From the NCBI GenBank assembly GCA_964505635.1, contig CAZDIP010000002.1, forward strand, positions 165,843-229,842: a stretch of DNA of 64,000 nucleotides, written 5' to 3'. A program made the position numbers and the translations under genes. Below are positions 4,141 to 53,818 of this stretch, one piece after another. Below the pieces are notes generated by a model that saw only the letters and a list, made by a program, of their open reading frames with translations, was not told the DNA's origin and did no database searches. How positions within the stretch are numbered: the stretch's first letter is position 1; each line of letters begins with the position of its first letter. The stretch is from an uncultured Candidatus Saccharibacteria bacterium. GTDB taxonomy: Bacteria; Patescibacteriota; Doudnabacteria; UBA920.

Positions 4141-4203
4141 AAAAAATAAAAACAGGGGGAGGCGGGGGCGCTTGTGGCGCCCCGACCCCGATCCCTGTTT
4201 TCG
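4141..4203 (-). terminator. GC-rich hairpin terminator downstream of PEP-CTERM gene
   Basis: acagggggaggcgggggcgc/gcgccccgaccccgatccctgt imperfect long stem flanked by A/T runs. Confidence 0.45.
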
Positions 4204-4287
4204 AATGACGATGTCTTTACCGAGCCGGCGCCTATAGCGCCGGTAGTGCGCCCGCAGCTTGCGGGCATTGGTACGTTTTGGCATGGC

Positions 4288-5052: not shown

Positions 5053-5212
5053 GGTGCCTCCTTATGGTTCCATGTGTCTGTTTGAGTCGTACGCAATTAA
5101 TGCCATCTTTTCGCCAAGTGGCTAAAGAAAAACATTTATATGTCACCACTGACTCGGTATAGTGACCTTATATTATACCTTATTTTAAGCTTTTTGTCAA
5201 TATCAAACAATA

Positions 5213-5238
5213 AAAAACCGCTTTTTTAAGCGGTAATA
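5213..5238 (-). terminator. rho-independent terminator after pilB
   Basis: accgctt-aaaaaa-aagcggt hairpin followed by a T-run on the minus strand. Confidence 0.6.
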
Positions 5239-5259
5239 AATTATTTATTTTGTTTATAC

Positions 5260-6912: not shown

Positions 6913-7000
6913 GCTTTTTGTTTCTCTCTGTGAAATAAAAACAACAACTGCCTTTATTATAGCATTTGTTGTTTATGCTTGTCCTCTGCTTTCAAAAATT

Positions 7001-8149
7001 TTAATGGCTGGCAAATAAGCGCGCGAGCTTGTTTTCCAACTCTACGACCGTGGTGTCTGAAAGCTCATACTGCCTGGTCCAATAAGGCATCAAGCCATGA
7101 ACCCCTATCTTTATAGGTTGGCCTAAAAGCTGGTCCACTATAGAAGGATCGACTTGAACATGCCCAGCAAACTGCAAAGAAAACTTTCCATTACTGTGCT
7201 CTCCGGCCAAACAGAGCATTTTGTAACCGCTAATGTTGTCTATCAGCTCCCGCAAAAGCATGGGTAAATTTTCAAGACCAGCGCCGGACTTTTCAAAATC
7301 CGTGGTCAACAAAATTGAAAACACACCCTTGCTTTCCTGAATCAATTTAAGCCTGGCCAAAGAACGCCCCCAGAGTCTCAAATAAGGTAATGACCGGGTT
7401 TTATATAAATGCCTGACAATTTCCTGCTGATGTCCGCCTAAATCCATTAAGCGCGCCGCCTGCAAAAAAACCTTGGGCGTAGTTTGTGGCCTTTGAAAAC
7501 TGTTAGTCTGGCTAATAATTCCGCATAAAAGGCAGGTGGCAATATCTTCGGTTACCAGTTCCTTACGAGTCGCTTCAAAAAGTTCGGTTAATATTTCCGC
7601 GACCGATGTAGCGTTAATGTCTACGATATTAACAGCCGCAAAGTATTCGTTGCCGGCATTAAAATCCAAATTAACTTTTGGGGTTTGAAAAAACAAGTCT
7701 CCGGCATCTTCAAATAACTTGCCCAAAACCGACAAATTTTCACAACCCAAAATAATAATTAGGTCATAAAAGTCGTTTTGAATTTCAAAACTTACATCTT
7801 CCTGAGCAAAAACCCCGGGTTCAGATTTTAAATAAATTTTTACCTGGTTTTCAAAAATGTCATAACTCAGCTCCTTTAGCTTGTTATTTTTAGTGTTTAT
7901 TACTAAAGCGCCGGATTTACCCGTAAAGACAGAGTTTTTAATGTCTTCTATTCTAGGCAAAAAACCTGCGATCTTCGGCAGCTTGCCCGAGGTCGCAATA
8001 TACGGAGTCTTTTCAAAACCCCTTAAAAAAGCAGCCAAACTTAGTGCGCTGGCTGTAAGGTCAACTGTTAAATCTTCCGGCAGCGCAATTAAGATATTTT
8101 TTGCCTTATTAATAGCATTTAAAAATTCTGTAAAAGTAGTTTTTTCCAT
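7001..8149 (-). CDS. DHH/DHHA1-family paralog (NrnA-like) with degenerate catalytic motifs
   Basis: Shares DIATCLLCGIIS, LYKTRSLPYLRLWGRSLARL and GHVQV with the NrnA at 53990-54970, but the N-terminal DHH aspartates are replaced (ALPEDLTVDLTAS). Confidence 0.5.
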   Translation of the reverse strand: MEKTTFTEFLNAINKAKNILIALPEDLTVDLTASALSLAAFLRGFEKTPYIATSGKLPKIAGFLPRIEDIKNSVFTGKSGALVINTKNNKLKELSYDIFENQVKIYLKSEPGVFAQEDVSFEIQNDFYDLIIILGCENLSVLGKLFEDAGDLFFQTPKVNLDFNAGNEYFAAVNIVDINATSVAEILTELFEATRKELVTEDIATCLLCGIISQTNSFQRPQTTPKVFLQAARLMDLGGHQQEIVRHLYKTRSLPYLRLWGRSLARLKLIQESKGVFSILLTTDFEKSGAGLENLPMLLRELIDNISGYKMLCLAGEHSNGKFSLQFAGHVQVDPSIVDQLLGQPIKIGVHGLMPYWTRQYELSDTTVVELENKLARLFASH

Positions 8150-8264
8150 AAATAAATGATTAAACAGTATAATTGATTCTTGCGCCTAAGTCAATATTAT
8201 TTAGGACACGCCTGCCGATGGCAAAAAGTTGCGGTATTAATAACAATTGGGTTAAAATAACCAC

Positions 8265-8669
8265 ATGAAGCCGGACATGCTGATAGAAATCAAAAATTCC
8301 AAAACAGCAGCGGAAAAAATAGCCCAAACCCTCAAGGGTGGAGAAATTATGGGGCTTATAGGCACTTTGGGCGCGGGAAAAACGACTTTTGTTCAACACC
8401 TTGGTAAGGTCCTTAATGTTAAACAGCGCATCACCAGTCCCGGTTTTAGCCTTATGAATATTTATTATGCTAAATTAAGCAGCGGGAAAAAAATTTACTT
8501 TTACCATTTGGATCTCTATAGGACGCGTAATTTTCGCGAGGTTAAAGACTTGGGCCTAACTGAGGTTTGGGGCAAAAAAAATGTAATTACCATTATTGAG
8601 TGGGCAAATAAAATTAACAAACATTTACCAACAAAAACCCGTATTTTAAAATTTTCCAATGAACATTAA
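8265..8669 (+). CDS. tsaE: tRNA threonylcarbamoyladenosine biosynthesis protein TsaE
   Basis: P-loop GLIGTLGAGKTTFVQ; size and context match the YjeE family. Confidence 0.8.
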   Translation: MKPDMLIEIKNSKTAAEKIAQTLKGGEIMGLIGTLGAGKTTFVQHLGKVLNVKQRITSPGFSLMNIYYAKLSSGKKIYFYHLDLYRTRNFREVKDLGLTEVWGKKNVITIIEWANKINKHLPTKTRILKFSNEH

Positions 8670-9861
8670 CCGACTTGCTATTTTTTTATTTGCAATTACC
8701 TTTACCGTTTTGCCCAATGCAGCTCGGGCGGAAGAAACGGCTGTTTTTAATTTTGTCCACCAAAATGAGTCTTTTGAAGTGGACACGGCAACCCTTTCGG
8801 CTTGGCAGGGCAAAACAGTACTGCCAACTAGCAACTTGTTAACCTTATCCGTTACAGCAGCAAATCCGGTGGCATTATATTTTGGCCAACAAAGCAGGCC
8901 AAGCACAACAAGAGCCAGTTATAATTTTCGACCTGACAAAATTTACGCCTTTATTGCCAAACTGGCGGAAAAAATTGAACAAAAACCCCAGGAGCCGGTA
9001 CTGGAAATAATAAATAATCGCGCGGTCAAGTTTACGCCGCCAAAAAATGGTAAAAATCTGGACGCCTACGCCAGCACCCTTTGGGCGCTCGCGGCATTAA
9101 ACAACCGCGACCAAAAAGTCGAACTGACTGTTTATGAACAGTCGCCGCGCAAAAAACTGAGCGAGCTTAATAACTTAGGAATTAACGAGCTTTTGGCTGA
9201 AGGAAAATCCAGCTTTAAAGGCAGCCCCAAAAACCGACGTCACAATATTACGGTGGGGGTGGAAAAAATGAAAGGTATAATTTTAGCTCCGGGCGAAGAA
9301 TTCAGTTTCAATAAATTTTTAGGGCCGGTGGAGAAAGAAGAGGGTTTTTTGCCCGAACTGGTAATTAAACGAACCGGCACCGTGCCTGAGCTTGGAGGTG
9401 GCTTATGCCAAGTTTCCTCTACCACTTTTAGAGCGGCCATGAACGCCGGCCTGCCTATAGTGCAAAGAAAAAACCACGCTTATGCCGTGCAATACTATTC
9501 CCCCCAAGGCACAGACGCAACAATTTACCCGGGAGTTGTAGATTTAAAATTTAAAAATGATACCTTGGCGAACCTGTTAATCTGGCCAAGTTTTCCTGAC
9601 AAAGATACCTTGGTTTTTGATTTTTACGGCACCAAGGATCAGCGAGTTGTGGATGTTAAAAAACCAATACAGTACGACCGCAAAGAAGACGGCAGCTTAA
9701 AGGCAGAATGGACGAGAGTGGTTTTAAAAGACGGGGTAACCAGCACCTCCACCTTTAAGTCTGTTTACCAACCCCCCGCCCTTTTCCATAAAGAAGAAGA
9801 ATTTGTTACATCCGCCTCGCCCGCTCCCACGCCAACGCCTGCTCCGTTGACTGTAAATTAA
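8659..9861 (+). CDS. VanW-family secreted protein
   Basis: Signal peptide; GGGLCQVSSTTFRAAMNAGLPIV VanW core. Confidence 0.75.
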   Translation: MNINRLAIFLFAITFTVLPNAARAEETAVFNFVHQNESFEVDTATLSAWQGKTVLPTSNLLTLSVTAANPVALYFGQQSRPSTTRASYNFRPDKIYAFIAKLAEKIEQKPQEPVLEIINNRAVKFTPPKNGKNLDAYASTLWALAALNNRDQKVELTVYEQSPRKKLSELNNLGINELLAEGKSSFKGSPKNRRHNITVGVEKMKGIILAPGEEFSFNKFLGPVEKEEGFLPELVIKRTGTVPELGGGLCQVSSTTFRAAMNAGLPIVQRKNHAYAVQYYSPQGTDATIYPGVVDLKFKNDTLANLLIWPSFPDKDTLVFDFYGTKDQRVVDVKKPIQYDRKEDGSLKAEWTRVVLKDGVTSTSTFKSVYQPPALFHKEEEFVTSASPAPTPTPAPLTVN

Positions 9862-16023: not shown

Positions 16024-17370
16024 TTATATATACAACTTATCCAGAATTAAATCCACCTCCTGCTTAAACTCAACCTTTTCGCTTAATAGATTCTCTATTT
16101 TTTCTACGGCGTGCATAACCGTTGTGTGATCCCTTCCTCCAAAAAAATCACCAATGGAAGGGAATGAATTATCCAGGTTTTTTCTTATCAAATACATTGC
16201 AATTTGCCTGGGTTTTACAAATTCTTTCCTGCGGGACTGTTTAATCAGGTCTTCAAGGGTTATGTTGTAGAATTCGGCGACTAGTTCCGCTATTTTTTTT
16301 GCGGAAGTTACCCTTTTTTTTATTCCTATTATGCTGGTTAAAATGTTTTTTGCTTCTTCTAAAAACAACCCACGGTTGTGCATTTGTTGGTATACTGCAA
16401 GTTTATTTAGGGCACCTTCTAACTCCCTAACATTGTTTTGTATATTCTCTGCAAGGTAAAAAAGAATTGGTTCTTCTATGGCTACCCCGCGTTTTTCCAT
16501 TTTGTTTCGGAGTATGGCCATGCGGGTTTCTAAGTCAGGGGCCTGTATATCTACCACCATTCCCCACTCAAAGCGTGAAATCAACCTTTGTTCAATAGCC
16601 GGTATTTCTTTTGGCGGTCGGTCGGAGGTAATAATTATTTGCTTGCCTTTATCTCTTAGTTCATTAAAAGTATGAAAAAATTCTTCTTGGGTTCCTTCTT
16701 TGCCGGCAATAAACTGAATGTCGTCAATTAGCAACATATCAGCGTCGCGGTATTTTTTTTTGAATTCGTCGGTACGTTTTTGTTTAATAGAATCAATATA
16801 ATCGTTAGTGAATTTTTCACTGCTTACGTATAAAATTCTACTCCTGGGATTTGAACTTAGTAATTTATGACCCACGCCCTGCATTAAATGGGTTTTTCCC
16901 AAACCAACACCCCCGTAAATAAATAATGGGTTGTACTGGCTGCCTGGGTTTTTTGCCACAGCGATACTGGCCGCGTACGCCAGCTCGTTATTTTTTCCAG
17001 TAATAAAGGTTTCAATAGTGTATTTGGGATTCAGCCCCAGGATTGGGATTGTTTGATTTTCTGTTTGTTCAAAGTTTTTTCCAACCGCCCTGCTGTTATT
17101 ATTGGTTTTTTGGGTAATTTGGGAAACATTCCCTATTTGGTAGCGCACTTCTTTTATTTCCGGTGCAATTGTTTTTAGAGCTTTAAGTATTTCTGCCTGA
17201 TATTTGCTACTAATCCAGTTTTTATGGAACATGTCAGGGAGGTGAATTGTAATATAGTCGTCGCCTTTCTCCGAAATCCCTGTATTTTTAAACCAAGTGT
17301 TAAAATTAGCCTTGCTTAGTGTAATTTCTAAATGTCCCAATATGGCTTGCCAGAGCTGCTGGTTGTTCAT
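16024..17370 (-). CDS. dnaA: chromosomal replication initiator DnaA
   Basis: GGVGLGKTHLMQ Walker A, C-terminal DnaA-box binding HTH. Confidence 0.93.
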   Translation of the reverse strand: MNNQQLWQAILGHLEITLSKANFNTWFKNTGISEKGDDYITIHLPDMFHKNWISSKYQAEILKALKTIAPEIKEVRYQIGNVSQITQKTNNNSRAVGKNFEQTENQTIPILGLNPKYTIETFITGKNNELAYAASIAVAKNPGSQYNPLFIYGGVGLGKTHLMQGVGHKLLSSNPRSRILYVSSEKFTNDYIDSIKQKRTDEFKKKYRDADMLLIDDIQFIAGKEGTQEEFFHTFNELRDKGKQIIITSDRPPKEIPAIEQRLISRFEWGMVVDIQAPDLETRMAILRNKMEKRGVAIEEPILFYLAENIQNNVRELEGALNKLAVYQQMHNRGLFLEEAKNILTSIIGIKKRVTSAKKIAELVAEFYNITLEDLIKQSRRKEFVKPRQIAMYLIRKNLDNSFPSIGDFFGGRDHTTVMHAVEKIENLLSEKVEFKQEVDLILDKLYI

Positions 17371-17547
17371 GGTTTTTAAAAAGTTTTAGTGACTTTGTTT
17401 ATAGTACTTATTGAATTTTATCAGTGAGTTATCAACATGTAAAACAGTAAAAAATGCGCAGAAATATAAGGTTTTTAACAGTACGTGTTAATATGGTGTG
17501 GATATTTTGTGATAATAAATTTTTTTTACGCCCCCTCTTTTTTAGTA

Positions 17548-17576
17548 TTGACCAAGAACGGTCATTTCAGTATAAT
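17548..17576 (+). promoter_or_regulatory. sigma70-type promoter upstream of rpmH
   Basis: TTGACC - 17 nt - TATAAT. Confidence 0.5.
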
Positions 17577-17603
17577 TACTTAAGAAATTATTAATCTGAT
17601 TTT

Positions 17604-17738
17604 ATGAAAAGAACGTATCAGCCGAAGGTTAAACGCAGAAAGCGCAGGCATGGGTTTTTAAAGCGAATGCAGACAAAAACAGGGCGAAATGTTTTGGCAA
17701 GGCGTCGTGCCAAGGGTAGAAAGAAACTAAGCGTTTAA
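17604..17738 (+). CDS. rpmH: 50S ribosomal protein L34
   Basis: [44 protein letters not shown] (44 aa; below ORF-track cutoff). Confidence 0.88.
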
Positions 17739-17765
17739 TTTTCAGACCAGCCAGTTTAGTGTATT

Positions 17766-18098
17766 ATGTTAGCTAAAAAGCATCGTCTAACCAAAACTAA
17801 GGACGTTTTAGCGGTCTTTGCCAGGGGACGGGCTTTTTTTAACCCATATTTTTCTTTAAAAATCCTCAAGAATAAAACGGGAAAGCCTCGTTTTACGATT
17901 GTGGTTTCTACCAAAGTTTCAAAAAAAGCCGTCGTAAGAAACCGGCTAAAGCGAATAATTAGGGAGCTTATAAAAAAAAATATGGCAAGTTTTTCTGAGG
18001 CAGATTTTGTTTTTACCATCAAACCGGGTTTTCTTCAACTGGAAGAAAGGGAAGGCTTGGCTAAAATAGAAAGTATGATTAAAAACCAAAAAGTCTAA
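17766..18098 (+). CDS. rnpA: ribonuclease P protein component
   Basis: basic 110-aa protein directly after rpmH. Confidence 0.85.
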   Translation: MLAKKHRLTKTKDVLAVFARGRAFFNPYFSLKILKNKTGKPRFTIVVSTKVSKKAVVRNRLKRIIRELIKKNMASFSEADFVFTIKPGFLQLEEREGLAKIESMIKNQKV

Positions 18099-18108
18099 AA
18101 GTAATTAC

Positions 18109-18360
18109 ATGATGAATCTGCCTAAAAAAATTAGCATATTTATAATTAAAATTTATCAGACTCTAATTTCTCCCGATCATAGCTGGTTAAAAGCACGCTA
18201 TCCGTATGGTTACTGCAGGCACTACCCTTCTTGTAGTGAGTATACAAAAAGTGCTATTGAAAAATTTGGCTTAATTAAAGGTGTTTTTTTAGGGACCCGC
18301 AGAATTATTCGCTGTAATCCCTTTGCTTCCCCATCAATAGACCCAGTACCAAAATCTTAA
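18109..18360 (+). CDS. yidD: membrane protein insertion efficiency factor YidD
   Basis: YPYGYCRHYPSCSEY conserved Cys motif. Confidence 0.8.
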   Translation: MMNLPKKISIFIIKIYQTLISPDHSWLKARYPYGYCRHYPSCSEYTKSAIEKFGLIKGVFLGTRRIIRCNPFASPSIDPVPKS

Positions 18361-18367
18361 AAAATCT

Positions 18368-19081
18368 ATGTTTTTAAATCTTTATAACGAGGTTATTTAT
18401 AGGCCACTTTTAAATTTGTTAGTTTTTTTCTATCAAGTTATTCCCGGACACGATATCGGAATCGTGATTATTTTACTAACCTTATTCATTCGTTTTCTTT
18501 TGGCCCCTAGTTTCCATAAGTCTTTGAAAAGTCAAAAGGCAATGAATGACTTGCAGCCCAAGCTAAACGAGTTAAGAGAAAGGCATAAAGACGACAAAGA
18601 GGCTCAGGCCAAGGCCATGATGGCTTTGTATAAAGAACATCAAATAAATCCTTTTTCCTCATGTTTGCCTTTATTGCTCCAGTTGCCTATTTTAATCGCA
18701 TTGTATCAAGTTTTCAGCAAAGCTCTTTCTAATCACCTGACGGGCTTATATAGTTTTGTCAATTTTACTGGACAAATTGATCCTAGATTTTTGGGCTTAA
18801 TTGACCTGTCCAAGCATTCCGGGGGTTCCGTCGCAGGTATGATTTTGGCATTTTTGGCGGGTCTTGCCCAATTTTGGCAGTCTAAAATGATGTTGCCTAA
18901 AAGTCAAAGCACCGACGCAACAACCAAAGCCATGCAAATGCAAACTACCTATATTTTACCGGTTATCAGCGTGGTTATTGCGTTTAAGCTTCCGGCTGGC
19001 CTACCGCTTTATTGGATTGTCACCACACTATTCGCTGTTGCCCAGCAGTATTATATTCACAAAAAACAACCGCTTAGTTAA
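18368..19081 (+). CDS. yidC: membrane protein insertase YidC (short form)
   Basis: YidC/Oxa1 core TM helices; conserved operon position. Confidence 0.85.
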   Translation: MFLNLYNEVIYRPLLNLLVFFYQVIPGHDIGIVIILLTLFIRFLLAPSFHKSLKSQKAMNDLQPKLNELRERHKDDKEAQAKAMMALYKEHQINPFSSCLPLLLQLPILIALYQVFSKALSNHLTGLYSFVNFTGQIDPRFLGLIDLSKHSGGSVAGMILAFLAGLAQFWQSKMMLPKSQSTDATTKAMQMQTTYILPVISVVIAFKLPAGLPLYWIVTTLFAVAQQYYIHKKQPLS

Positions 19082-19098
19082 AAAGTAAAGCCCAGCAC

Positions 19099-19569
19099 AT
19101 GACGGATTACGATAAAATTGAACAAATTAAAGCGATTATTTTAGAGTTGCTTGAACAAGCCGGTTTTTCAGCGGCTGTGGAATACGAGGAAAGTATTACC
19201 AAAGGCCTGATTTTTAATATTAGCACGCCGGATTCTTTTTTGTTGATTGGAAGACAGGGGTCTGCTCTCCATGCCTTGCAAGTGCTGGTTCAGTCTTTGG
19301 TTTTTAAGCGCATGCCCGCCCAAGATCCAGTATGGTTTTCTATTGACGTTGATGATTACAAGCGTAAAAGAGAGTGGTATTTGAAGGAAACCGCTAAGGC
19401 GGCCGCTGAAAAGTTGAAAAAAACCGGCCGCGCTCAGGCGCTAGAATTTATGCCGGCTTATGAACGCCGTTTTGTTCACGCGTATTTGCAGCAGCATGAA
19501 CCAGAGGTTTATTCGGAGAGCTTGGGTCAGGAACCGAGCAGACGCATAGTAATTAGATTAAAAAAATAA
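19099..19569 (+). CDS. jag: Jag/KhpB R3H-domain RNA-binding protein
   Basis: C-terminal R3H-like region (ERRFVHAYLQQH); operon position after yidC. Confidence 0.8.
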   Translation: MTDYDKIEQIKAIILELLEQAGFSAAVEYEESITKGLIFNISTPDSFLLIGRQGSALHALQVLVQSLVFKRMPAQDPVWFSIDVDDYKRKREWYLKETAKAAAEKLKKTGRAQALEFMPAYERRFVHAYLQQHEPEVYSESLGQEPSRRIVIRLKK

Positions 19570-19570
19570 G

Positions 19571-19598
19571 AAAATACCCCCTAAAAAGGGGGTTTTTT
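19571..19598. terminator. bidirectional terminator between jag and convergent gene
   Basis: ccccctaaaaaggggg hairpin flanked by A- and T-runs. Confidence 0.6.
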
Positions 19599-20763
19599 AA
19601 ATTAAACTTAAAATTAACCAAAAAACTACGGCCAGGTCATTTTTAAAATATGGGTTGTCAAACTGGCCTTGCACAAGTACGGTAATTAAAAAAATGGCGA
19701 CAGAAAGACCAATTAGGTTTTTATGATCTGTTAAGCCTTTATAAATAGCGGAGAAAATTATTATCAAAACGGAAAATAAACCCAAAATACCGGTTTCGGT
19801 CCAGAAATTTAAAAATATATTGTGGGGGTAATTATGGTTTGGCAAGCTTTGGTCTTGGATTATTCTTTTATATTCCCTGGCATAGCCTCCAAGGCCCAAA
19901 CCAAAAATCGGTGATTCTTTTATGGCCGCTATCCCGCTTTGCCAGAGAGTCAGCCGGGAGGTAGATGACTTTTCCCCTTGCAAGGGAGCTGTTAAACGCT
20001 CTTTTAAAAATGGGTTGGCATAAACTGTCAGTCCGGCCACCAAAGCCAGCGCGCCAAGCAAAAGTCTGGTTTTTTTGTTTCCGGCAAAAAAGATATAAGT
20101 TAACAGGGCGAAAAACAGTCCAATCCAGCCGGAACGTGATAAGGACAATAGCAGGCCAAAAGCCCCTATAAGCCAGAGCATTAACCAAAATTTATTTTTA
20201 TTTAAAGATTTAATTTTTTGTCCTAGGTCCGGGATTAAAAAGCCTAAAAGCGGGGCAGACCACAGTGCGTAAAAATTAGGATGGCCAAAAATAGAAAGTG
20301 CCCGCCTTGGTTCTTGCTGGTTGCCTGCAAATAAGGGTAAAAGCCCCATGCCGGTGAAATATTGAATTATGGCGTAAAGACCCAAAGCGGAAAGTGCCAA
20401 ATAAAGAGCAATAATAAGAAAGTTTTTTGAAGCCGGGGATTTTTCAAAAGTATATTTAGCAATAAAATAAAGGCTGAGAGGCTGCAAAAACAAAACTAAA
20501 AATAATCCTAATGACCCCGTGTCATACCCGGCCTTAATTAGACCCACAACTCCGGCAATAAAAAAAAATCCAACCGCAATATTTTGTTTTTTAAGCCAGC
20601 TTGCAAAAGTAAATATTTCGCCTTTCTTTTTTAACGTATAACAGAAAACTAACCAGACTAAAGCAATCCAAGCCATTAACATGTTGGCAGGAAGCCCTAG
20701 CAGGTTAAATCGCAATGAATAGGCTGGGTTTAAAAAGAGGCTGATTAAGATTAAGTATGTCAT
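19597..20763 (-). CDS. O-antigen ligase/polymerase (Wzy_C) family membrane protein
   Basis: ~10 TM helices with central periplasmic loop; overlaps PBP gene by 4 nt. Confidence 0.5.
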   Translation of the reverse strand: MTYLILISLFLNPAYSLRFNLLGLPANMLMAWIALVWLVFCYTLKKKGEIFTFASWLKKQNIAVGFFFIAGVVGLIKAGYDTGSLGLFLVLFLQPLSLYFIAKYTFEKSPASKNFLIIALYLALSALGLYAIIQYFTGMGLLPLFAGNQQEPRRALSIFGHPNFYALWSAPLLGFLIPDLGQKIKSLNKNKFWLMLWLIGAFGLLLSLSRSGWIGLFFALLTYIFFAGNKKTRLLLGALALVAGLTVYANPFLKERLTAPLQGEKSSTSRLTLWQSGIAAIKESPIFGLGLGGYAREYKRIIQDQSLPNHNYPHNIFLNFWTETGILGLFSVLIIIFSAIYKGLTDHKNLIGLSVAIFLITVLVQGQFDNPYFKNDLAVVFWLILSLI

Positions 20764-23351
20764 TGTTCGCTTGGGGTGTTTAAGCTGGGCAGCGCTTCTT
20801 TGCTAAAAGTTACATTTACGCTCGTATCAGCAGTGTTTCCCAAAATATCAACAACTTTTATGGCAATGGTGTGCGGCCCGTTTGAATATTGGTTGTACAA
20901 AGTAAAAAGGTAAGGCATTGAGGTTTTGCTTGCAACAAAAAACCCGTCTATATAGACATCTACTCTGGATATGGGATTATTGCCAACCGCGGAGACATTA
21001 ACCAAAAAAGGAACTTCCGAAATAATAGCCTCTTCTTGCGGTTGTAGTATGTTGACAACAGGGTTTGTTGTGTTGTTATTGGGCACAGAAGGTATGCCTA
21101 GCCCTTGCGGGTATCTGTAGCCGTTGGCTAAAGCCCAGGCAATAACCGCGTTTTCCCAAGCTGGGATTTCGGGTTTTTCGCTATGAAGTACAACGTAATT
21201 TTCGTAAATAATTTGGCTCGGAGGAGTTTGGCTGGTAGCAGGCAAATGAGTGATTGAGTCAATCGCAACTGTCTGGTGCACATCGTCGGTTTGTACGGGG
21301 ATCGAATAGTCTGCAAATACTTCTTCTTTAGTGCTAGGGGTGTTGTTTGAAGGTAATTTTCCGGATAATTCGTCTACAACTATTTTGGTAATTCCAGGCG
21401 GTTGTTTAAATTCTTCAACTGGATTGTCTTTAAGCGCTGTTTTCATAAATTCATTCCATATTGGAGCCGCAACGAAAACCCCGTCAGCACCTTTTTTTAG
21501 CAAGGTGCCGTCGTTGTTTCCTACCCAAACCCCCGCGGCCAAAGACGGGGTAAATCCTACGGTCCAACCGTCTTGCCATTTTTGGGTGGTGCCGGTTTTG
21601 GCTGCTACAGGCCTGTCAGGTAAAATTAGTGGCGAGTTGGAGCCAAAAACATAAGCTCGAGCCTTATTGTCTGTCATAATACTAGTTAGTAAATATACAG
21701 CTTGCGGGTCAGCAATAATTTGCGGCTCATCTTTATATTCTTCTAAAATTTTTTGGTCTCGGTTGATTATTTTTAAAATCGCTGTTTTTTCATGTTTAAC
21801 CCCCCCGTTGGCTATGACCGAATAAGCGGCCACGTGATCAAGTAGTTTTATTTCACAACCGCCCAATACCAAAGACAGACCGCAGTCAGCCAGAGGGCTG
21901 GTAATGCCAAGGTCTCTTGCTGTTTGCACAGCATTATCGACACCGACTAATGCCAATGTTTTTACAGCTGGAATGTTTAGAGAGCCAGCCAAGGCCTGGC
22001 GCATGGAAATGGGTCCGCGTTCTTTGCCGTCATAGTTTTGAGGTGCATAGTCTTTGTCGCCGTACCTTCCGAAATTTGTGGTCACATCTAAGAGCATAGT
22101 GGCCGGAGCGTACTTGAATTCTTTGGAAAAGGCTGTCAGGTAGACATAGGGCTTAAAACTACTGCCGGGCTGGCGGCTGGAAACGGCAACGTTTACATTA
22201 GGTTCAAATAAGCAATTTTTTCCGGGCTTACAACCTTCCGGCAAAGGGTCAGCAAAATAGTCTTTACTTCCAACCATAGCTAAAATTTGTCCTGTTTTAG
22301 GGTCAATTGCCACTAAAGCCGCATTATTACCGTTATATTTTTTTGAATTTTTTTCTACGCCCTTCAAAACAGCTTCTTCGGCAATTTTTTGTAAAGATGG
22401 ATCTAGAGTGGTATAAACTTTTAACCCCCCTTCCTGCAAAGTTTTTTCTCCGAATTTTTGAGCCAGATAGTCCTGAACCATTAACACAAAATGCGGGGCA
22501 TTTATAGCGGTTTTTGTTTTGGAAAATTCCACTTTTTCGTCTTTGGCTGCTTGTTCCTGTTCTTTGGTTATATAACCTTGCTCGCGCATTTGACTTAATA
22601 TGTAGTCTTTCCTGCCATCCAATATTTGTCTGTTTGGGCCGAATGGGTTGTACCGGCTTGGCGATTGCGGGAGAGCTGCCAGATAAGCGCTTTCAGCCAG
22701 ACTTAAATCTTTGGCGTGTTTGCCAAAATAACTTTGAGCAGCCGCCTCTACCCCGTAGGAATTACGGCCGTAAGGAATTTCATTTAAATATAATTTTAAT
22801 ATGTCATCTTTGGAAAAACGCGCTTCTAAACTTAAAGATAAAATAGCTTCTCGGATTTTACGATCAAAGCTTTTGCTGTTGTTTAAAACCGCATTTTTTA
22901 CAAATTGTTGAGTTAGGGTGCTGCCGCCTCCGCCGCTGGGACCAAGGTTTATCGCATACCTGAAAACTGAACGGAAAATCCCTCTAAAATAAAGGCCGTG
23001 GTGTTGGTAAAAATCTTTATCTTCTATGGCAATGGTAGCATGTTGTAGGTCCGGGGAAATTTGGTCCAAATTTACCAATGTTCTTTTCGCTTCCCCGTGA
23101 ATTTCATAAAGCAGGGTGTTGTCCCGCGCGTAAATTTTAGTGCTTTCGGTAACCTGCCGTTCAAGCAGCTTGTTGGGGTCTGGCAAGTCTTTAGCGTAAT
23201 AAGCAAAAATTAAAGCCCCGGTAATTATGCCTAAAGCAATCAGCCTAAAGCCCCACAGGCCTAATTTTTTAACATCCCAGTGCCATTTTAAAAACCCCTT
23301 TTTCCTGAATTTTGATTTAGGCTCCTTATTTTTATAACTATACACGCGCAT
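20760..23351 (-). CDS. penicillin-binding protein 1A (bifunctional glycosyltransferase/transpeptidase)
   Basis: GT51 motifs (IAIEDKDFYQHHG, RKIRE), SSFKP active-site serine, C-terminal Ig-like extension. Confidence 0.9.
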   Translation of the reverse strand: MRVYSYKNKEPKSKFRKKGFLKWHWDVKKLGLWGFRLIALGIITGALIFAYYAKDLPDPNKLLERQVTESTKIYARDNTLLYEIHGEAKRTLVNLDQISPDLQHATIAIEDKDFYQHHGLYFRGIFRSVFRYAINLGPSGGGGSTLTQQFVKNAVLNNSKSFDRKIREAILSLSLEARFSKDDILKLYLNEIPYGRNSYGVEAAAQSYFGKHAKDLSLAESAYLAALPQSPSRYNPFGPNRQILDGRKDYILSQMREQGYITKEQEQAAKDEKVEFSKTKTAINAPHFVLMVQDYLAQKFGEKTLQEGGLKVYTTLDPSLQKIAEEAVLKGVEKNSKKYNGNNAALVAIDPKTGQILAMVGSKDYFADPLPEGCKPGKNCLFEPNVNVAVSSRQPGSSFKPYVYLTAFSKEFKYAPATMLLDVTTNFGRYGDKDYAPQNYDGKERGPISMRQALAGSLNIPAVKTLALVGVDNAVQTARDLGITSPLADCGLSLVLGGCEIKLLDHVAAYSVIANGGVKHEKTAILKIINRDQKILEEYKDEPQIIADPQAVYLLTSIMTDNKARAYVFGSNSPLILPDRPVAAKTGTTQKWQDGWTVGFTPSLAAGVWVGNNDGTLLKKGADGVFVAAPIWNEFMKTALKDNPVEEFKQPPGITKIVVDELSGKLPSNNTPSTKEEVFADYSIPVQTDDVHQTVAIDSITHLPATSQTPPSQIIYENYVVLHSEKPEIPAWENAVIAWALANGYRYPQGLGIPSVPNNNTTNPVVNILQPQEEAIISEVPFLVNVSAVGNNPISRVDVYIDGFFVASKTSMPYLFTLYNQYSNGPHTIAIKVVDILGNTADTSVNVTFSKEALPSLNTPSEQ

Positions 23352-36424: not shown

Positions 36425-36698
36425 ATATTGTTATATTTTGTGGCTGTTGGTGCCAATTTTGGCGCTTTTACTCAAATATAACCGGTGGTTCTTTAACAAT
36501 TGGTTGTTGGTTGAGCAAATTACAGCCATCTAAATCACATATGACTTCTTAGGTCTATTGAATAGAAAATTAGAAAGCATCTTCTCCACAAGGTCGAAGA
36601 GTATTTTTGTTTTTTCGGACACAGCGAATAGTGGTTAAATTTTAACCCCTGCCTGCTATGTCCGAATTCTGTTGGAAATTTCTGTTAGGAGAAAGACA

Positions 36699-37307
36699 AT
36701 GAAACGTTTGTACTATTTCCGCCATTCCATCAAGGACGGAGAGGCGAGCACGCTCGGGCCCAAGGGGCTTGAACTCGCCAATTTGGTTGGCGCGTGGGTT
36801 TTCTGCCACGACCATGAGTTTGACCCCGCTCTGGTGTTCACCGGTCCTCTTGTCAGAACGGTTCAAACCGCCTACGCTTTCATGCAAGGCGTGTCCAAGA
36901 GGTGCGGTGGCTCGATGCCTATACTCATGCCTGCCATTCCCGAAATCGGCGACGACGCACTCTTTGCCGAAATGGTGAAGCCTGCTGAACAGTTCCGCGC
37001 CCTGGCAGGCGAGATGGGCAATTACCGCGCATTACTGACATGCCACGACGGCGACGTTGTGGACTTCTGGATTGTGCGCGCCATGGAGGGGCTCAAAAAG
37101 ATGGTCGGTGCGATGGAGGAAGTGAACTGCGCAGTGGTGTTTGGTCATTCTCCGATCATTGAATTGACATTGGCCGGCATCCTCGGAAAACAGCTCCCCG
37201 AGGAACTTCTGACTTTTTCGGAAATGGAAGGTGTGCTGTTGACCGTTGACGGCGACGGCAAAGTCAACGTCATAGTCCACAAGATCTCCATGCCCGCGCA
37301 GGCCTAA
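36699..37307 (+). CDS. histidine phosphatase superfamily (phosphoglycerate-mutase-like) protein, GC-rich
   Basis: LYYFRHSIKDGEAS (RHG-type motif) and FGHSP; RBS aggagaaagacaATG; GC content much higher than flanks. Confidence 0.5.
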   Translation: MKRLYYFRHSIKDGEASTLGPKGLELANLVGAWVFCHDHEFDPALVFTGPLVRTVQTAYAFMQGVSKRCGGSMPILMPAIPEIGDDALFAEMVKPAEQFRALAGEMGNYRALLTCHDGDVVDFWIVRAMEGLKKMVGAMEEVNCAVVFGHSPIIELTLAGILGKQLPEELLTFSEMEGVLLTVDGDGKVNVIVHKISMPAQA

Positions 37308-42494: not shown

Positions 42495-42739
42495 AGGCTA
42501 CAGAACTAGAGAATATGAGAATCTAGGGAAAACTACAAAACCTTAATCTCGTAGTTTTTTGTAGTGAATTAATGAATTTCTGTAGACTAATTATATACAA
42601 TTTTAAGCAAAATGGGAAGGGAAAAAAGACTTGAAATTAAACAGATAATAGCGTAAAATATCCATACAAAGGAGGTGCACTATGGCCATCAGTTAGGAGT
42701 CTAACTCTGGTCATGTTAACACATCACACCGCAACCATT

Positions 42740-42979
42740 TCACGTTCCGTGGATGATCACGGCGAAATCTTGATTGTTCGGAGCTTCAACGGGCTTAATG
42801 CCCTTGTTGATCCAATTTTTCAAGACGTAGTCGTGTTTGTTCCCAACGGCCGGCGTGCCAGGCTTGTGGAATTTCAATTCCCAAGTGTTGGCCGTTTTTG
42901 TGGCCGTGACCCCGAGGTGGTAGTGAGCCGCATTTGCGGCGGAGCCGTTGGCTTTCGTTTTATCTGCCATGATCTTCAT
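42740..42979 (-). CDS. hypothetical small protein in GC-rich island (doubtful)
   Basis: 79-aa ORF with balanced composition; the competing plus-strand ORF is Arg/Val-rich, typical of wrong-frame GC-rich DNA. Confidence 0.2.
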   Translation of the reverse strand: MKIMADKTKANGSAANAAHYHLGVTATKTANTWELKFHKPGTPAVGNKHDYVLKNWINKGIKPVEAPNNQDFAVIIHGT

Positions 42980-43347
42980 GTTCTATTGCAAGAACTTAGT
43001 GAAGGTCAACGGGTAGATGTTATGCCAGCCGCCGACCCTGCCCATGCGTATGCGCCGGTCTTCCGCCCCTTGCCTGTACTTTCCGGAGCGGTTGCCGCGC
43101 AACCCGTGTATGCTTGCGCTGCTGCGTAAGCGTCATTTCGGCCGCTGGAAACAGGCAACCAGCGGCTTCTTTAATAACCAGATATAGGCGCTTGCTTTTT
43201 TTGGCAAAATCAGTATAATAATAGAGCTTATTTAGACAAGCGCCATATAATTATTAACCCTAAATAAGCCTATGTAACCGGCGCTTATAAGTTTTAATGC
43301 AAACTAAAGTTTTTATTTTATCGATCTAAATAGGGATCGTTTTTTAT

Positions 43348-49789: not shown

Positions 49790-50080
49790 TGGTGCCTCGG
49801 GTCAGAATCGAACTGACTACGCCAGCCTCTTCCAAGGCTTTTTTGGACTATATCATCATCCCGAAATTTTCGGGAGCTGGGCGCTTAGTACGGGATTATT
49901 GTTGGGACTCACCCGTTAGTCTCTACGCCTTTTCCGGCACCTTTGCCCGCCGGAACTTGGTTCGGGATTGTTATCTTTTAAGATAGTTTTTCCCGAGTTC
50001 ACCCAGTTTTTCTCAATCCACCTTGCGGCGGATGGCCCCAAAGATTTTAGGGCTGCGCTCTACCAATGAGCTACCGAGGC
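49790..50080 (-). tRNA. tRNA-Phe (anticodon GAA) interrupted by a group I intron in the anticodon loop
   Basis: 5' exon GCCTCGGTAGCTCATTGGTAGAGCGCAGCCCT (ends at U33); 3' exon GAAGAGGCTGGCGTAGTCAGTTCGATTCTGACCCGAGGCACCA; the spliced product closely matches canonical tRNA-Phe. Confidence 0.65.
49833..50048 (-). ncRNA. group I self-splicing intron (~216 nt)
   Basis: P1 between exon GCCCU and internal guide GGGGC (U.G at the splice site); P-like GCGGGCAAAGG, R-like GUAGAGACUAAC and S-like AUGAUAUAGUCC elements (P7 GACUA/UAGUC); terminal G before the 3' exon. Confidence 0.55.
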
Positions 50081-50669: not shown

Positions 50670-50753
50670 GCCCAGGTGGTGGAATGGCATACACGTACGC
50701 TTGAGGTGCGTATTCCTTTTGGATTGAGGGTTCGAGTCCCTCCCTGGGCACCA
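50670..50753 (+). tRNA. tRNA-Leu (anticodon GAG)
   Basis: anticodon loop uuGAGgu, long variable arm, CCA; acceptor and T arms identical to tRNA-Leu(UAA) at 47144. Confidence 0.85.
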
Positions 50754-50754
50754 T

Positions 50755-50784
50755 AAAAATCCCAAAAATGCTTTTGGGATTTTT
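50755..50784 (+). terminator. rho-independent terminator
   Basis: aaaaatcccaaaa-atgc-ttttgggattttt. Confidence 0.55.
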
Positions 50785-50796
50785 ATGTGGCATGAG

Positions 50797-50831
50797 AAAA
50801 GCCGCGCGATCCTCCATGTCGCGCGGCTCTT
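50797..50831 (-). terminator. GC-rich hairpin terminator for the GC-rich hypothetical gene
   Basis: aagccgcgcga-tcctccatg-tcgcgcggctctt. Confidence 0.5.
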
Positions 50832-50846
50832 GGTTGTATAAGTAGG

Positions 50847-52319
50847 TTACCACCCGGACCGTTCTTTCCTGACAGCAATTACCATTTTGCGCAGTGGGTC
50901 GTTATCTTTTGGCATTCCTGCCCAGGTGGAAGTCGCTCCACCCATGAGGCGGCTCATGAGACAACCGTTGTTGCAACGAATTTTGGGATTCGTTTGAGCC
51001 GCCAGGCGACTCATTCCTCCCAGCAAGTAGTCTTCTACCTGCTGGATGCTTTCTATCCGAACAAGGTCGCTTACAGTATAGCGGTTCCAGTAGCAGGCTA
51101 GTTTGAGGCCAGGGAAGACGCCTGCTTCCCACGGCGTGACGGTTGCGGCTCCGGCGCCTTCAATCTTAACCTGTCCCCAGGTTTCGCCGGTGATGCCCAT
51201 CTGCGTATAGAAGCCGGCACCAATGTCTTCGTAGCAGCGCCAGAGTCCGTGGCCAGACATGGCCAAACACAGGCGATCTGGGTCTTTGTTATACAGTCGG
51301 ATTGCGGCTTCCAGGAGATCCCAGAAATGGTGCCGTGACGGGATAAACCGTTGATTGGCCGGTTTATCATGTTCGTCTAGGGCCCAAGTGACGATTTTGT
51401 GGATGTGAGGCAGGTCGTCCGGCGAAAACAATGCTTCGCCATTGGACGGGCTGCTCTGCGCCGGGTACGGGTTGAAAATCATGGACGGAAACTCAGCATG
51501 AGCCGCTGCCGCCATTTCCAACAAGTGTGGGACGTTGGTATGCTTGAACACCACGTTCCAGAGAATGCGCGAATTCGGAAATCCTTCTCGCAAGATACGC
51601 CGGGTGGCAGCGACGCCTGCAAGCAGTTTCTTTCGCGGCCCCTGGAATTTGTTGAGTTTGTTGTGCGCGGCGACCAGTTCTTCTTCTGTCATGGACAGAA
51701 CCTGAGCCAGATCGTCAGGGCTGGTGATGTGGTCAAAGCTGAAGGCAAATACTTTTGGAGGGTGTCGCTTCAACATGGCAACGAACCTGCCGGTTGTGTC
51801 GGATGCGATGCGCCAACCTACTGCTGTCAAGTTGGCACTTACATCATTTTCCTCGCACCACCGAAACCCTGGTTCGAGGTTGTTGAAGAGCTCGGTGTTG
51901 CCACCGAAAAAGTTCAACCCCTTTTTGCCGGAAACCACCCCTGCCTTGAATGCTTCCGATTGTGCTGTCGGCGCCTCCATACGCTCCATCAGTTCGTTGA
52001 ATTTTGTGCTGTTGACCCAAAAATTCCACGCTCTGATTTGGGCTTGGAAAATCATGTCAACGCGCTGGATGATCTCTCCAATAGGCGCGTAGCTTGCCGT
52101 CCGGATACCGGGATTTCTGACAGAAGCCCCGTCGCAGTCGTAGTCGTTTTGGGTTGGATTGCCTTGGTCGTCTGTAAGGACACAGTTGTAGTTACAGACC
52201 TCTCCTTCGCCGAAGCTTCCGTTGCCATGATCCGCCCACGCAGACACGAAGTTGATCTGTGCGGCTGCAGTTTCGGGATGAATGTAACCCTGTTCACGAA
52301 GTTTGTCTATAGCGCTCAT
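50847..52319 (-). CDS. hypothetical 490-aa protein, GC-rich (Cys motifs CNYNC and CNNGC; function unknown)
   Basis: long ORF with much higher GC than the genome background; no confident family assignment from sequence alone. Confidence 0.45.
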   Translation of the reverse strand: MSAIDKLREQGYIHPETAAAQINFVSAWADHGNGSFGEGEVCNYNCVLTDDQGNPTQNDYDCDGASVRNPGIRTASYAPIGEIIQRVDMIFQAQIRAWNFWVNSTKFNELMERMEAPTAQSEAFKAGVVSGKKGLNFFGGNTELFNNLEPGFRWCEENDVSANLTAVGWRIASDTTGRFVAMLKRHPPKVFAFSFDHITSPDDLAQVLSMTEEELVAAHNKLNKFQGPRKKLLAGVAATRRILREGFPNSRILWNVVFKHTNVPHLLEMAAAAHAEFPSMIFNPYPAQSSPSNGEALFSPDDLPHIHKIVTWALDEHDKPANQRFIPSRHHFWDLLEAAIRLYNKDPDRLCLAMSGHGLWRCYEDIGAGFYTQMGITGETWGQVKIEGAGAATVTPWEAGVFPGLKLACYWNRYTVSDLVRIESIQQVEDYLLGGMSRLAAQTNPKIRCNNGCLMSRLMGGATSTWAGMPKDNDPLRKMVIAVRKERSGW

Positions 52320-52468
52320 TGCTTTCTCCTACTTTCCTTTGAGATATACCCTCTTTGGTATTGGCCTTATTTTATTTCAAATCTTTAAATAGTTCAACCC
52401 TCCTTGACCCGGGAGTTGATACTGGATAAAATAATCAGGATCTAGAAGTACAATTACAGGGAGGTTTT

Positions 52469-53152
52469 ATGGCGAAAGCCGGTATCGTGGTGGTAAGTAA
52501 TACGCTTACGAATCACGCGCTCACTATCATGCGGGACAAGCGTACTAAGATGCGTGAGTTTCGTGAGGGGGCAATTTATTTGTCCCGAATCCTTGCTTAT
52601 GAGGTTGGTAAAACCTTTGAAGCCTCGAGCAAGACCATTGAAACCCCGCTCGGTCGTTTTGAGGGCCAAAGGCTCGTCTCGAGGGCTTCGATCGTTCCGG
52701 TCCATCGCGCGGGCGGCATCATGACTCAGCCGTTCATTGACATGTTGCCGACAGCAGACCAGGTGCTGGATGTTGGCGTTTATCGCGACGAACTCGATGG
52801 TTGCAGGCCAAAAGAGTATCTGAACAAAATCCCTGCTCGTATCAGCGGTCGTCGGGTTTATGTGGTGGTGGATCCAATGCTTGCGACCGCGGGATCCGCG
52901 ATTCACACTATTAGCCTTTTAAATAAGGCCGGTGCTCAAAGTGTTGTCTACGCGGGCATTGTGTCTGCACCCGAAGGAGTGAAAGCTCTTTTACAGGCGC
53001 ATCCAAACACCAAGGTTTTTACAGTCTCAGTGGATGAGTGCCTCAACGCCTCCAACTATATTGTAAAGGGGTTGGGCGACTTCGGTGACCGGATGAATGG
53101 TACGAGAGTATATGTTCGTAGAGTCAAACGTCTTGATGGTATGGCGGCTTAG
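52469..53152 (+). CDS. upp: uracil phosphoribosyltransferase
   Basis: VYVVVDPMLATAGS PRPP-binding motif and IVKGLGDFGDRMNGT C-terminal signature; RBS agggagg; GC-rich. Confidence 0.85.
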   Translation: MAKAGIVVVSNTLTNHALTIMRDKRTKMREFREGAIYLSRILAYEVGKTFEASSKTIETPLGRFEGQRLVSRASIVPVHRAGGIMTQPFIDMLPTADQVLDVGVYRDELDGCRPKEYLNKIPARISGRRVYVVVDPMLATAGSAIHTISLLNKAGAQSVVYAGIVSAPEGVKALLQAHPNTKVFTVSVDECLNASNYIVKGLGDFGDRMNGTRVYVRRVKRLDGMAA

Positions 53153-53242
53153 GCTATACAGATTTCTCGCTGGCGTGTGTGGGGCACGCTGGCGAGACTC
53201 GTTTTTTTATATTAAAATTAGAGTGCAATTAAGTTTATTTTT

Positions 53243-53818
53243 ATGTTTATCCCCGTAGTGTTAGGTTCAGTCAGAGACCAGCGCCGCAGCCTTGCTCCGG
53301 CGAAGTTATTGGTGGAAAAAATCAAAGCGGCCGGGCATGAGTCAGAACTTGTAGACTTTAAAGAAATGCCTTTGCCGTTTTTTGACCTTCCTACTGTGCC
53401 GGTGGCTTTAAAAGGAGTTTATCCAAACGAAAATGCGCAAAAATGGAGCAATGTCGCCCGCAGGGCTGATGCTTTGGTGTTAATAGTAAGCGAATACAAC
53501 CACGGCTATTCTGCGGTATTAAAGAACGCCCTTGACTGGCTGTATATGGAATTTAATAGAAAGCCCTTTGGCATGGTAGGCGTGTCGGACGGCAAATATG
53601 GCGGTATGCGCGCCATGGAAGCCTTGCGGCAGGTAATAGAAAATTTTGGCGCTGTAGCTATGCGCGAGGTGGTGGCATTTGGCCCGGTTCAGGATGCTTT
53701 TGATGCGGAAGGAAAATTGGTTGATGAAAGTTATTTAAAAAAGATTGACGGCCTTTTAAAAGTTTTAGTTGAATTTGCCCAAGCATTAAAGCCCATAAGG
53801 CCGGACTTAAAAGTTTAA
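53243..53818 (+). CDS. NAD(P)H-dependent FMN reductase family oxidoreductase
   Basis: flavodoxin-like pattern SEYNHGYSAVLKNALDW. Confidence 0.7.
   Translation: MFIPVVLGSVRDQRRSLAPAKLLVEKIKAAGHESELVDFKEMPLPFFDLPTVPVALKGVYPNENAQKWSNVARRADALVLIVSEYNHGYSAVLKNALDWLYMEFNRKPFGMVGVSDGKYGGMRAMEALRQVIENFGAVAMREVVAFGPVQDAFDAEGKLVDESYLKKIDGLLKVLVEFAQALKPIRPDLKV

Follow-up and report, generated by a model that had tools for sequence, protein, structure and literature searches.

A predicted radical-SAM-fold protein family beside uracil phosphoribosyltransferase and its possible part in pyrimidine formation

The six-step route to uridine monophosphate (UMP) is regarded as near universal, and bacteria of the candidate phyla radiation (CPR/Patescibacteria) are commonly taken for pyrimidine auxotrophs, since they lack pyrD, pyrE and pyrF. 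Here we describe a GC-rich gene pair in the 64,000-nt stretch of DNA presented above (the window; GC 40.4%, CPR-like in appearance), in which upp, encoding a uracil phosphoribosyltransferase (UPRTase), lies divergent from a 490-aa gene of an unnamed family. FAM is our working name for this gene, at 50847-52319 on the minus strand, and for its family. The predicted fold of FAM, a variant arrangement of its cysteines and its recurrent neighbours suggest a radical S-adenosylmethionine (SAM) enzyme that might work together with Upp. The two genes are as follows.

50847-52319, minus strand: FAM, 490 aa, predicted divergent radical-SAM-fold enzyme of an unnamed family
52469-53152, plus strand: upp, uracil phosphoribosyltransferase, 227 aa, divergent from FAM, with PF14681, NF001097 and the motif GLGDFGDR

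Among described enzymes, the best structural match to FAM is BlsE, the cytosylglucuronate decarboxylase (a twitch radical-SAM protein, PDB 7vob), itself a decarboxylase whose substrate bears a pyrimidine. The Cys motif of BlsE is the canonical CX3CX2C, and the enzyme decarboxylates a sugar non-oxidatively. Its identity to FAM is only 12%, FAM is about 160 aa longer, and the BlsE model TIGR04466 was weakly matched by 6 of the 65 members of the alignment on which all family statistics here are based, and not by the window protein. Non-canonical cysteine spacings are known from other radical-SAM enzymes, such as QueE (CX14CX2C) and HmdB (CX5CX2C), in which, as in FAM, an insertion into the cluster loop or an altered spacing goes with a conserved fold. 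The same is described for ThiC (CX2CX4C; PMC4389238).

The chemistry that we propose for FAM, in which hydrogen abstraction beta to a carboxylate is followed by loss of CO2 and an electron to leave a C=C bond, has precedents in MftC, AhbD and HemN/CgdH (PMC10114670, PMC10452713, PMC10114771). MftC catalyzes an oxidative decarboxylation to an alpha/beta-unsaturated product (PMC10114670), and AhbD converts propionate to vinyl groups with an auxiliary cluster as the proposed electron acceptor (PMC10452713); both belong to the same SPASM/twitch structural subclass as the best structural matches of FAM. MftC, AhbD and HemN nevertheless act on a peptide C-terminus or a tetrapyrrole and carry the canonical Cys motif, and the AhbD model was matched by 3 of the 65 members (E 0.0016), with no specific sequence relationship. 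The best PDB sequence match came from viperin and the prokaryotic viperins, nucleotide-directed radical-SAM enzymes, over the segment from GGNPE to SxD. These differ from FAM in length, Cys motif and gene context, all curated thresholds lay above the FAM scores, and the viperin model NF038283 gave weak matches only (best 5.5e-7 among members, none for the window protein). In metabolic terms, FAM and Upp would take the same place as PyrD with PyrE/PyrF, from dihydroorotate on to UMP, with Upp standing in for both PyrE and PyrF. PyrD, which has no homology to FAM, is a flavoenzyme dependent on fumarate, NAD or quinone, and it forms orotate.

The FAM family, its predicted fold and its motifs

Direct Pfam and NCBIfam scans returned nothing for the 490-aa window protein, with no match to PF04055 (Radical_SAM) even at E <= 1, and a PDB sequence search with a four-sequence FAM profile was also negative. 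A word-indexed search of 5.8 billion proteins retrieved only three relatives, at 77, 61 and 60% identity, and only three close relatives again with a 65-sequence profile. When 1.84 billion cluster representatives were searched exhaustively with a HMMER profile, 113 proteins came out at E <= 1e-3, of which 52 reached E <= 1e-30; the high scorers were mostly full-length (450-500 aa), and many of the weaker ones were fragments. The 61 distant members of the 65-sequence alignment share 20-29% identity with the window protein. On the results of this search, FAM is, judged by sequence, a real, small and unnamed family. PF04055 was weakly matched by 44 of the 65 members at E <= 1 (best E 8e-10), the window protein staying below the gathering threshold, and NCBIfam gave sub-threshold matches only, to SPASM/twitch-type and nucleotide-directed radical-SAM families. 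The family is therefore invisible to Pfam and NCBIfam annotation, and the PDB search yielded no solved structure for it. The genome-representative scan, run with patterns from the close clade, found only one Saccharibacteria metagenome-assembled genome (MAG); no FAM match was obtained in GenBank phages, PLSDB plasmids or IMG/VR, and the metagenome scan was made with an 18-sequence subset of the alignment.

With the 65-sequence alignment, the AlphaFold2 model of FAM rose from a mean per-residue confidence (pLDDT) of 52, obtained with four sequences, to 95.7, with a predicted TM-score (pTM) of 0.94. The predicted structure contains the partial (beta/alpha)6 TIM-barrel core of the radical-SAM fold, together with an N-terminal beta-sheet and a three-helix insert. 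The nearest folds are BlsE, MoaA and viperin. Foldseek agreed with the fold assignment at TM-scores of only 0.3-0.4, so that FAM has no close solved relative. The original prediction had found no family to which the 490-aa protein could be assigned; the family profile search and the AlphaFold2 model now place it, by predicted fold, as a divergent radical-SAM enzyme, one that fails the classical motif test. Three regions of the translation carry the relevant residues.

52134-52196, minus strand: variant cluster motif C42-x3-C46-x15-C62 (CNYNCVLTDDQGNPTQNDYDC), its three Cys invariant in 65/65 members
51891-51905, minus strand: GGNTE (FGGNPE in the family consensus), putative equivalent of the GGE(P) motif by which radical-SAM enzymes bind SAM
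50961-51236, minus strand: C-terminal region with conserved C362, C409, C449 and C453, a putative twitch/SPASM-like auxiliary Fe-S site

Across all 65 members the cluster motif reads C-x3-C-x(5-26)-C, most often with x8 in the second interval and with x15 in the Saccharibacteria clade. Whatever its substrate, FAM thereby adds a new cluster-motif spacing to radical-SAM enzymology. Neither the family, nor its Cys spacing with an insertion of 5-26 residues between the second and third Cys, nor a radical-SAM link from dihydroorotate to uracil is described in the literature searched, which is an absence from those libraries and not proof. The GGNTE region was aligned by HMMER to viperin NFAGGEPFLYP, and F138, G139 and G140 are kept in 64, 61 and 62 of the 65 members, respectively. 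Putative counterparts of the SAM motifs, FGGNPE, TTTG, SxDD, FNxVxHxxN and NPYPxQ, occupy the positions of strands beta2 to beta6. Each of the four C-terminal Cys is kept in 61-64 of the 65 members, a pattern that fits a twitch-like auxiliary cluster, and K231, N255, W411 and R457 are invariant. The CNYNC (C42-C46) and CNNGC (C449-C453) motifs pointed out in the original prediction thus fall within the variant cluster motif and the C-terminal region.

The partner gene is readily placed, in agreement with its earlier description as a clear uracil phosphoribosyltransferase. Upp scored 180.9 bits against PF14681 (cut-off 27) and 203.6 bits against NF001097 (cut-off 114), and its GLGDFGDR corresponds to the C-terminal GLGDxGDR uracil loop, all of which mark it as a UPRTase; against TIGR01091 it reached 183.7 bits, under the cut-off of 208. 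Both open reading frames (ORFs) lie where they had been predicted, and a strong Shine-Dalgarno sequence precedes each of them (GGGAGG in upp).

Gene neighbourhoods and the proposed reaction

Gene context was compared among 34 lineages, 30 from clustering FAM at 80% identity and 4 from loci added later. UPRTase is the immediate neighbour of FAM in 11 of the 34, in three arrangements: upstream on the same strand (L009, L015/16, L031/38, L042), downstream with gaps of 5-50 nt (L018/19, L022, L023, L025, L029), and divergent (the window and L001, an uncultured Candidatus Saccharibacteria MAG that is the closest relative retrieved). FAM identity between these upp-linked lineages is 24-45%. UPRTase was also the commonest family in a Pfam tally of 91 genes lying up to two genes away from FAM (12 matches), in which a tRNA-synt_2/MGS pair and amidohydrolases recur. 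A dihydroorotase gene (pyrC) lies directly upstream of FAM in L025, L032 and L037, at loci with a GC of 0.36, 0.50 and 0.65, with TIGR00857 scores of 292, 298 and 270 bits (cut-off 279, the last being just under). The order in L025 is pyrC-FAM-upp with gaps of 19 and 47 nt. The FAM-adjacent amidohydrolases also score against dihydropyrimidinase models, under cut-off. Overall, at least one pyrimidine-type neighbour (upp, pyrC or a phosphoribosyltransferase [PRTase]) is found in 20 of the 34 lineages, a recurrence far beyond chance. The original prediction of a pyrimidine-salvage module is thus borne out as regards a recurrent pyrimidine-related module. Its function may exceed salvage, as the dihydroorotase gene immediately upstream in three lineages suggests that uracil is formed from an intermediate of the de novo type.

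Other neighbours suggest that the step before FAM could vary. An AsnA-like fusion of about 495 aa adjoins FAM in four lineages (upstream on the same strand in L021, L026/L027 and L040, divergent in L017). Its class II core is AsnRS/AsnA-like and lacks the anticodon-binding domain, and the MGS domain fused to this core most resembles the allosteric, UMP/IMP-binding domain of CarB. This fusion could supply the FAM substrate, e.g., by an ATP-dependent ring closure in place of dihydroorotase, which is pure inference. A translationally coupled four-gene operon with overlapping stops and starts occurs in L041, a Candidatus Microgenomates lineage (4173-7988), and in L044 (4126-7997). It encodes, in order, a DDAH/arginine-dihydrolase-like pentein, a CodA-like amidohydrolase (NF005365/PRK06886), FAM and a PRK07322-type PRTase, an arrangement that hints at a ring precursor of guanidino or arginine origin. 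Upstream of it in L041 are divergently oriented uracil/xanthine permease genes.

In three lineages, genes for the disposal of 5'-deoxyadenosine adjoin FAM or lie close to it. These encode an MtnA-like isomerase (13 nt downstream, L024), a class II aldolase (directly downstream, L032) and an Apt-MTAP fusion (two genes upstream, L040). The activities of the dihydroxyacetone phosphate (DHAP) shunt clear 5'-deoxyadenosine, a by-product of radical-SAM enzymes (PMC10986504, PMC8102628), and these neighbours suggest that FAM would cleave SAM to the 5'-deoxyadenosyl radical. A FAM homologue with 30% identity was also found at 8001-9428, in a nucleotide-metabolism region, of a phage-like contig (L010/L011) with many small same-strand ORFs and genes for a UvsX-like recombinase, an exonuclease, a RuvC-like resolvase, a DNA methyltransferase and ThyX. 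This contig has no counterpart among GenBank phages or IMG/VR, and the carriage of FAM by phages consequently rests on a single phage-like contig. Further neighbours are a uracil/xanthine permease, adenosine deaminase and MPG glycosylase, and some FAM loci adjoin miaA, hisS, a gene for a KH/R3H protein or that for a CCA-adding enzyme.

The recurrent order of a ring-forming amidohydrolase, FAM and a PRTase places FAM at the step yielding the free aromatic pyrimidine base, where it would aromatize a dihydropyrimidine. With dihydroorotase upstream and Upp downstream, the simplest single reaction is the oxidative decarboxylation of dihydroorotate. Our preferred reading, held tentatively and with somewhat less than even confidence, is therefore that FAM forms a pyrimidine base that Upp turns with phosphoribosyl pyrophosphate (PRPP) into UMP, most likely by converting dihydroorotate to uracil. 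From the fold, the Cys pattern and the neighbourhoods we infer cluster binding, SAM cleavage, substrate and product as follows. A [4Fe-4S] cluster would be held by C42, C46 and C62, and a second cluster probably by C362, C409, C449 and C453. The 5'-deoxyadenosyl radical would take a hydrogen from C5 of 5,6-dihydroorotate, after which CO2 would be lost from C6, one electron would pass to the auxiliary cluster and the C5=C6 bond would be made. The net reaction would be dihydroorotate + SAM -> uracil + CO2 + 5'-deoxyadenosine + methionine, and Upp would then convert uracil and PRPP to UMP. FAM and Upp together would in this way bypass PyrD, PyrE and PyrF without O2, quinone or flavin.

Should FAM make uracil from dihydroorotate or from a related dihydropyrimidine, Upp would have a biosynthetic role in these organisms, and metabolic reconstructions would have to be revised for many uncultured lineages and for at least one phage. 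The reaction would also constitute an O2-independent alternative to dihydroorotate dehydrogenase (DHODH), comparable to the HemF/HemN pair. That FAM marks an undescribed pyrimidine route is credible but unproven. The most complete version of the idea, which is possible although we lean against it, is an unrecognized pyrimidine branch in which a radical-SAM enzyme with a new motif takes dihydroorotate to uracil, UPRTase performs the committed last step to UMP, and orotate, orotidine monophosphate (OMP), PyrD, PyrE and PyrF are bypassed. In such a branch the feeding step would differ by lineage, being a dihydroorotase, an AsnA-like/CarB-domain ligase or a pentein with a CodA-like amidohydrolase.

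The gene for an NADPH-dependent FMN reductase lies next to upp in the window (53243-53818, plus strand), and its counterpart in L001 (8452-9024) encodes a protein 90% identical, which reflects either recent exchange or strong constraint. This flavodoxin-fold protein could be an electron donor for the radical-SAM cluster; in the neighbour tally it did not appear beside FAM outside Saccharibacteria.

Points against the proposal and alternative readings

Several observations weigh against uracil formation from dihydroorotate by FAM. The substrate has been deduced from neighbours only, and about half of the lineages show none of the favoured neighbours (many of those contigs are short). The canonical CX3CX2C (CxxxCxxC) motif is absent from all 65 members; with the canonical third Cys missing and no PF04055 match for the window protein, SAM cleavage is not assured. 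Stoichiometric use of SAM would be costly for a bulk metabolite. Saccharibacteria are usually without pyrB and pyrC, and neither gene is visible in the 64-kb window, which bears on the source of dihydroorotate. In L001, FAM sits between upp and pyrD-pyrF-pyrE-prs, and with pyrD, pyrE and pyrF beside it the route would be redundant there. Finally, the flanks of FAM in L041 and L044 are a pentein, a CodA-like amidohydrolase and a PRK07322-type PRTase instead of PyrC and Upp, so the ring precursor may differ between lineages.

The alternative that survives best, unlikely as we consider it, is a radical-SAM desaturase that does not decarboxylate, that is, an O2- and quinone-independent DHODH with orotate as its product or a dihydrouracil dehydrogenase yielding uracil. 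PyrC or another amidohydrolase upstream would suit this chemistry equally well, the sub-threshold dihydropyrimidinase scores would accord with it, and the PRTase that follows FAM in L041 and L044 is a generic one and not Upp. An orotate product, however, leaves unexplained both a uracil-specific PRTase as the commonest neighbour and a pyrC-FAM-upp operon without pyrE or pyrF, and pyrD is already next door in L001. Moreover, the PyrC assignments pass the dihydroorotase cut-off (narrowly missed in L037), and the dihydropyrimidinase cut-off is not reached.

We give less credence to a salvage lyase that would free uracil from a nucleoside, a nucleotide or a modified or damaged base, by analogy with the radical-SAM queuine lyase, with Upp recapturing the uracil. 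Its appeal lies in the adjacency of upp, in hosts whose CPR-type genomes suggest life on scavenged nucleic acids, and in neighbours such as the uracil/xanthine permease, adenosine deaminase, MPG glycosylase and the Apt-MTAP fusion. It does not account for a dihydroorotase or an AsnA-like enzyme directly upstream, ordinary hydrolases and phosphorylases do the same job cheaply, and Pfam scans of the window protein and the family recognized no nucleoside- or RNA-binding domain.

Improbable, too, is an action of FAM after the PRTase, on UMP, UTP or another nucleotide, as in viperin-like or phage-type modification of nucleotides or DNA. The best PDB sequence match is indeed viperin (E 0.0015), the prokaryotic viperin model was weakly matched by 18 of the 65 members, the nearest folds (BlsE, MoaA and viperin) act on nucleosides or nucleotides, and ThyX and a DNA methyltransferase are encoded close to the phage-borne copy. 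The PADLOC pVip models, however, reached at most 19.6 bits, confined to the GGNPE segment, and did not match the window protein; a nucleotide kinase partner is lacking, and the length of 490 aa and the Cys motif differ. PyrC upstream, a PRTase downstream and the overlapping or tight spacing suggest, instead, the order amidohydrolase, FAM, PRTase.

We place just as little weight on FAM being a pseudo-radical-SAM Fe-S protein that does not cleave SAM, or an enzyme of RNA modification or peptide maturation with incidental pyrimidine neighbours. The universal loss of the canonical motif and the replacement of the Glu of GGE by Asn in 46 of the 65 members speak for this, as do the loci beside miaA, hisS and the KH/R3H and CCA-adding genes and the frequent role of SPASM relatives in maturing peptides that are made by ribosomes and modified after translation (RiPPs). 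Against these stand the three invariant Cys of the cluster loop, the retention of every SAM-motif position, the 5'-deoxyadenosine disposal genes in three lineages and the pyrimidine-type adjacency in 20 of the 34; neither a precursor-peptide-like ORF nor a match to a RiPP recognition element (RRE) was seen in the neighbour and family scans. Two narrower candidates were rejected: a viperin or defence system, given the lack of a meaningful PADLOC match, and a RiPP maturase, given the missing peptide and RRE signals and the dominance of nucleotide-metabolism neighbours.

Composition, boundaries and origin of the pair

The higher GC that the original prediction had reported for both genes was confirmed against 63 non-overlapping ORFs of the window (mean GC 0.406, sd 0.053; mean GC at third codon positions [GC3] 0.412, sd 0.081). 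FAM has a GC of 0.539 and a GC3 of 0.613, and upp has 0.516 and 0.539, which puts their GC about 2.5 and 2.1 sd above the mean. GC is raised at all three codon positions in both genes, and amino-acid composition alone was rejected as its cause because GC3 is raised too. The 1-kb bin at 51001-52000 (GC 0.550) is the maximum among the 64 bins of the window. Three other ORFs are as GC-rich, which makes the pair an outlier but not a unique one. These are 4288-5052 on the minus strand (0.545, GC3 0.71, with a PEP-CTERM motif), 36672-37307 on the plus strand (0.549, a weak histidine-phosphatase match) and 42713-43129 on the plus strand (0.535, no match in the Pfam scan), and they may be further foreign genes. 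The following signals flank the pair.

50670-50753, plus strand: tRNA-Leu(GAG) with its own hairpin (50752-50787), the left boundary of the GC-rich pair
50800-50828, minus strand: intrinsic terminator of FAM, -22.5 kcal/mol, z -4.0, with UUUUCUC after it on the minus strand
52320-52468, no strand: divergent FAM/upp spacer, 149 bp, with promoter-like sites for both genes
53165-53197, plus strand: intrinsic terminator of upp, 14-bp stem, -24.8 kcal/mol, followed by a T-run

The hairpins that had been predicted at the left boundary are real. The one after tRNA-Leu (-19 kcal/mol, z -4.7) and the FAM terminator both fold far better than shuffled sequence, and the upp terminator adds a third on the right. 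Promoter-like sites in the spacer lie at 52404-52432 (plus) and 52397-52369 (minus). The 5' leader of FAM holds the inverted repeat ATACC-n6-GGTAT (52346-52361), which is kept with its surrounding promoter region in L004, the orthologue with 77% FAM identity; it had no Rfam match and could be an operator or an RNA element.

Synteny was found in L001, where the upp-FAM pair occupies the same locus in the same order (IF2-rbfA-nrnA-FMN_red-upp<->FAM) and pyrD-pyrF-pyrE-prs takes the place of the tRNA-Leu(GAG) of the window. Identities between the two are 69% for IF2, 66% for rbfA, 64% for RNHCP, 62% for nrnA and 60% for FAM, with higher values for the YegS-like protein (81%) and FMN_red (90%). 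Since the locus is shared and its backbone is mostly 60-69% identical, the acquisition would be old, and a recent island was rejected on the same synteny. In L001, too, upp (0.528) and FAM (0.551) are the only GC outliers over a background of about 0.38-0.40. FAM is about 17 points GC-richer than its flanks in L004, also a Saccharibacteria lineage, and, with or without upp, GC-richer than its flanks in L013, L017 and L038; it is fully matched to them in L018, L022, L025, L029 and L036. Together with the patchy distribution and the one phage-borne copy, this pattern fits lateral movement of the module. In the window no integrase or transposase lies next to the pair, and the tRNA-Leu does abut it. 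We conclude that the pair is compositionally foreign and that this module was acquired before the divergence of the window lineage from one or more other lineages of Saccharibacteria. The lateral acquisition put forward in the original prediction thus stands and a recent arrival does not. The GC excess has persisted in Saccharibacteria through much divergence.

Two features of L001 lie close to this locus. Its upp (9109-9830) is frameshifted into ORFs of 91 and 163 aa and is intact, at 240 aa, in L002 (224-946), an independent contig with an identical FAM protein; the split probably reflects a misassembly or a strain-level pseudogene. At 16156-21503, after the RNHCP gene, L001 carries a serine recombinase, small phage-like ORFs and an FtsK-like gene, which resemble an element integrated near the pyrimidine cluster and are absent from the corresponding region of the window.

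Near the pair in the window, between tRNA-Val and tRNA-Gly, tRNA-Phe(GAA) (49790-50080, minus strand) is split by a 216-nt group I intron (Rfam RF00028, 61.3 bits) that follows U33 and ends in G. Exon 1 spans 50080-50049, the intron 50048-49833 and exon 2 49832-49790. ARAGORN missed the gene in its unspliced form and called a perfect tRNA-Phe on the spliced sequence.

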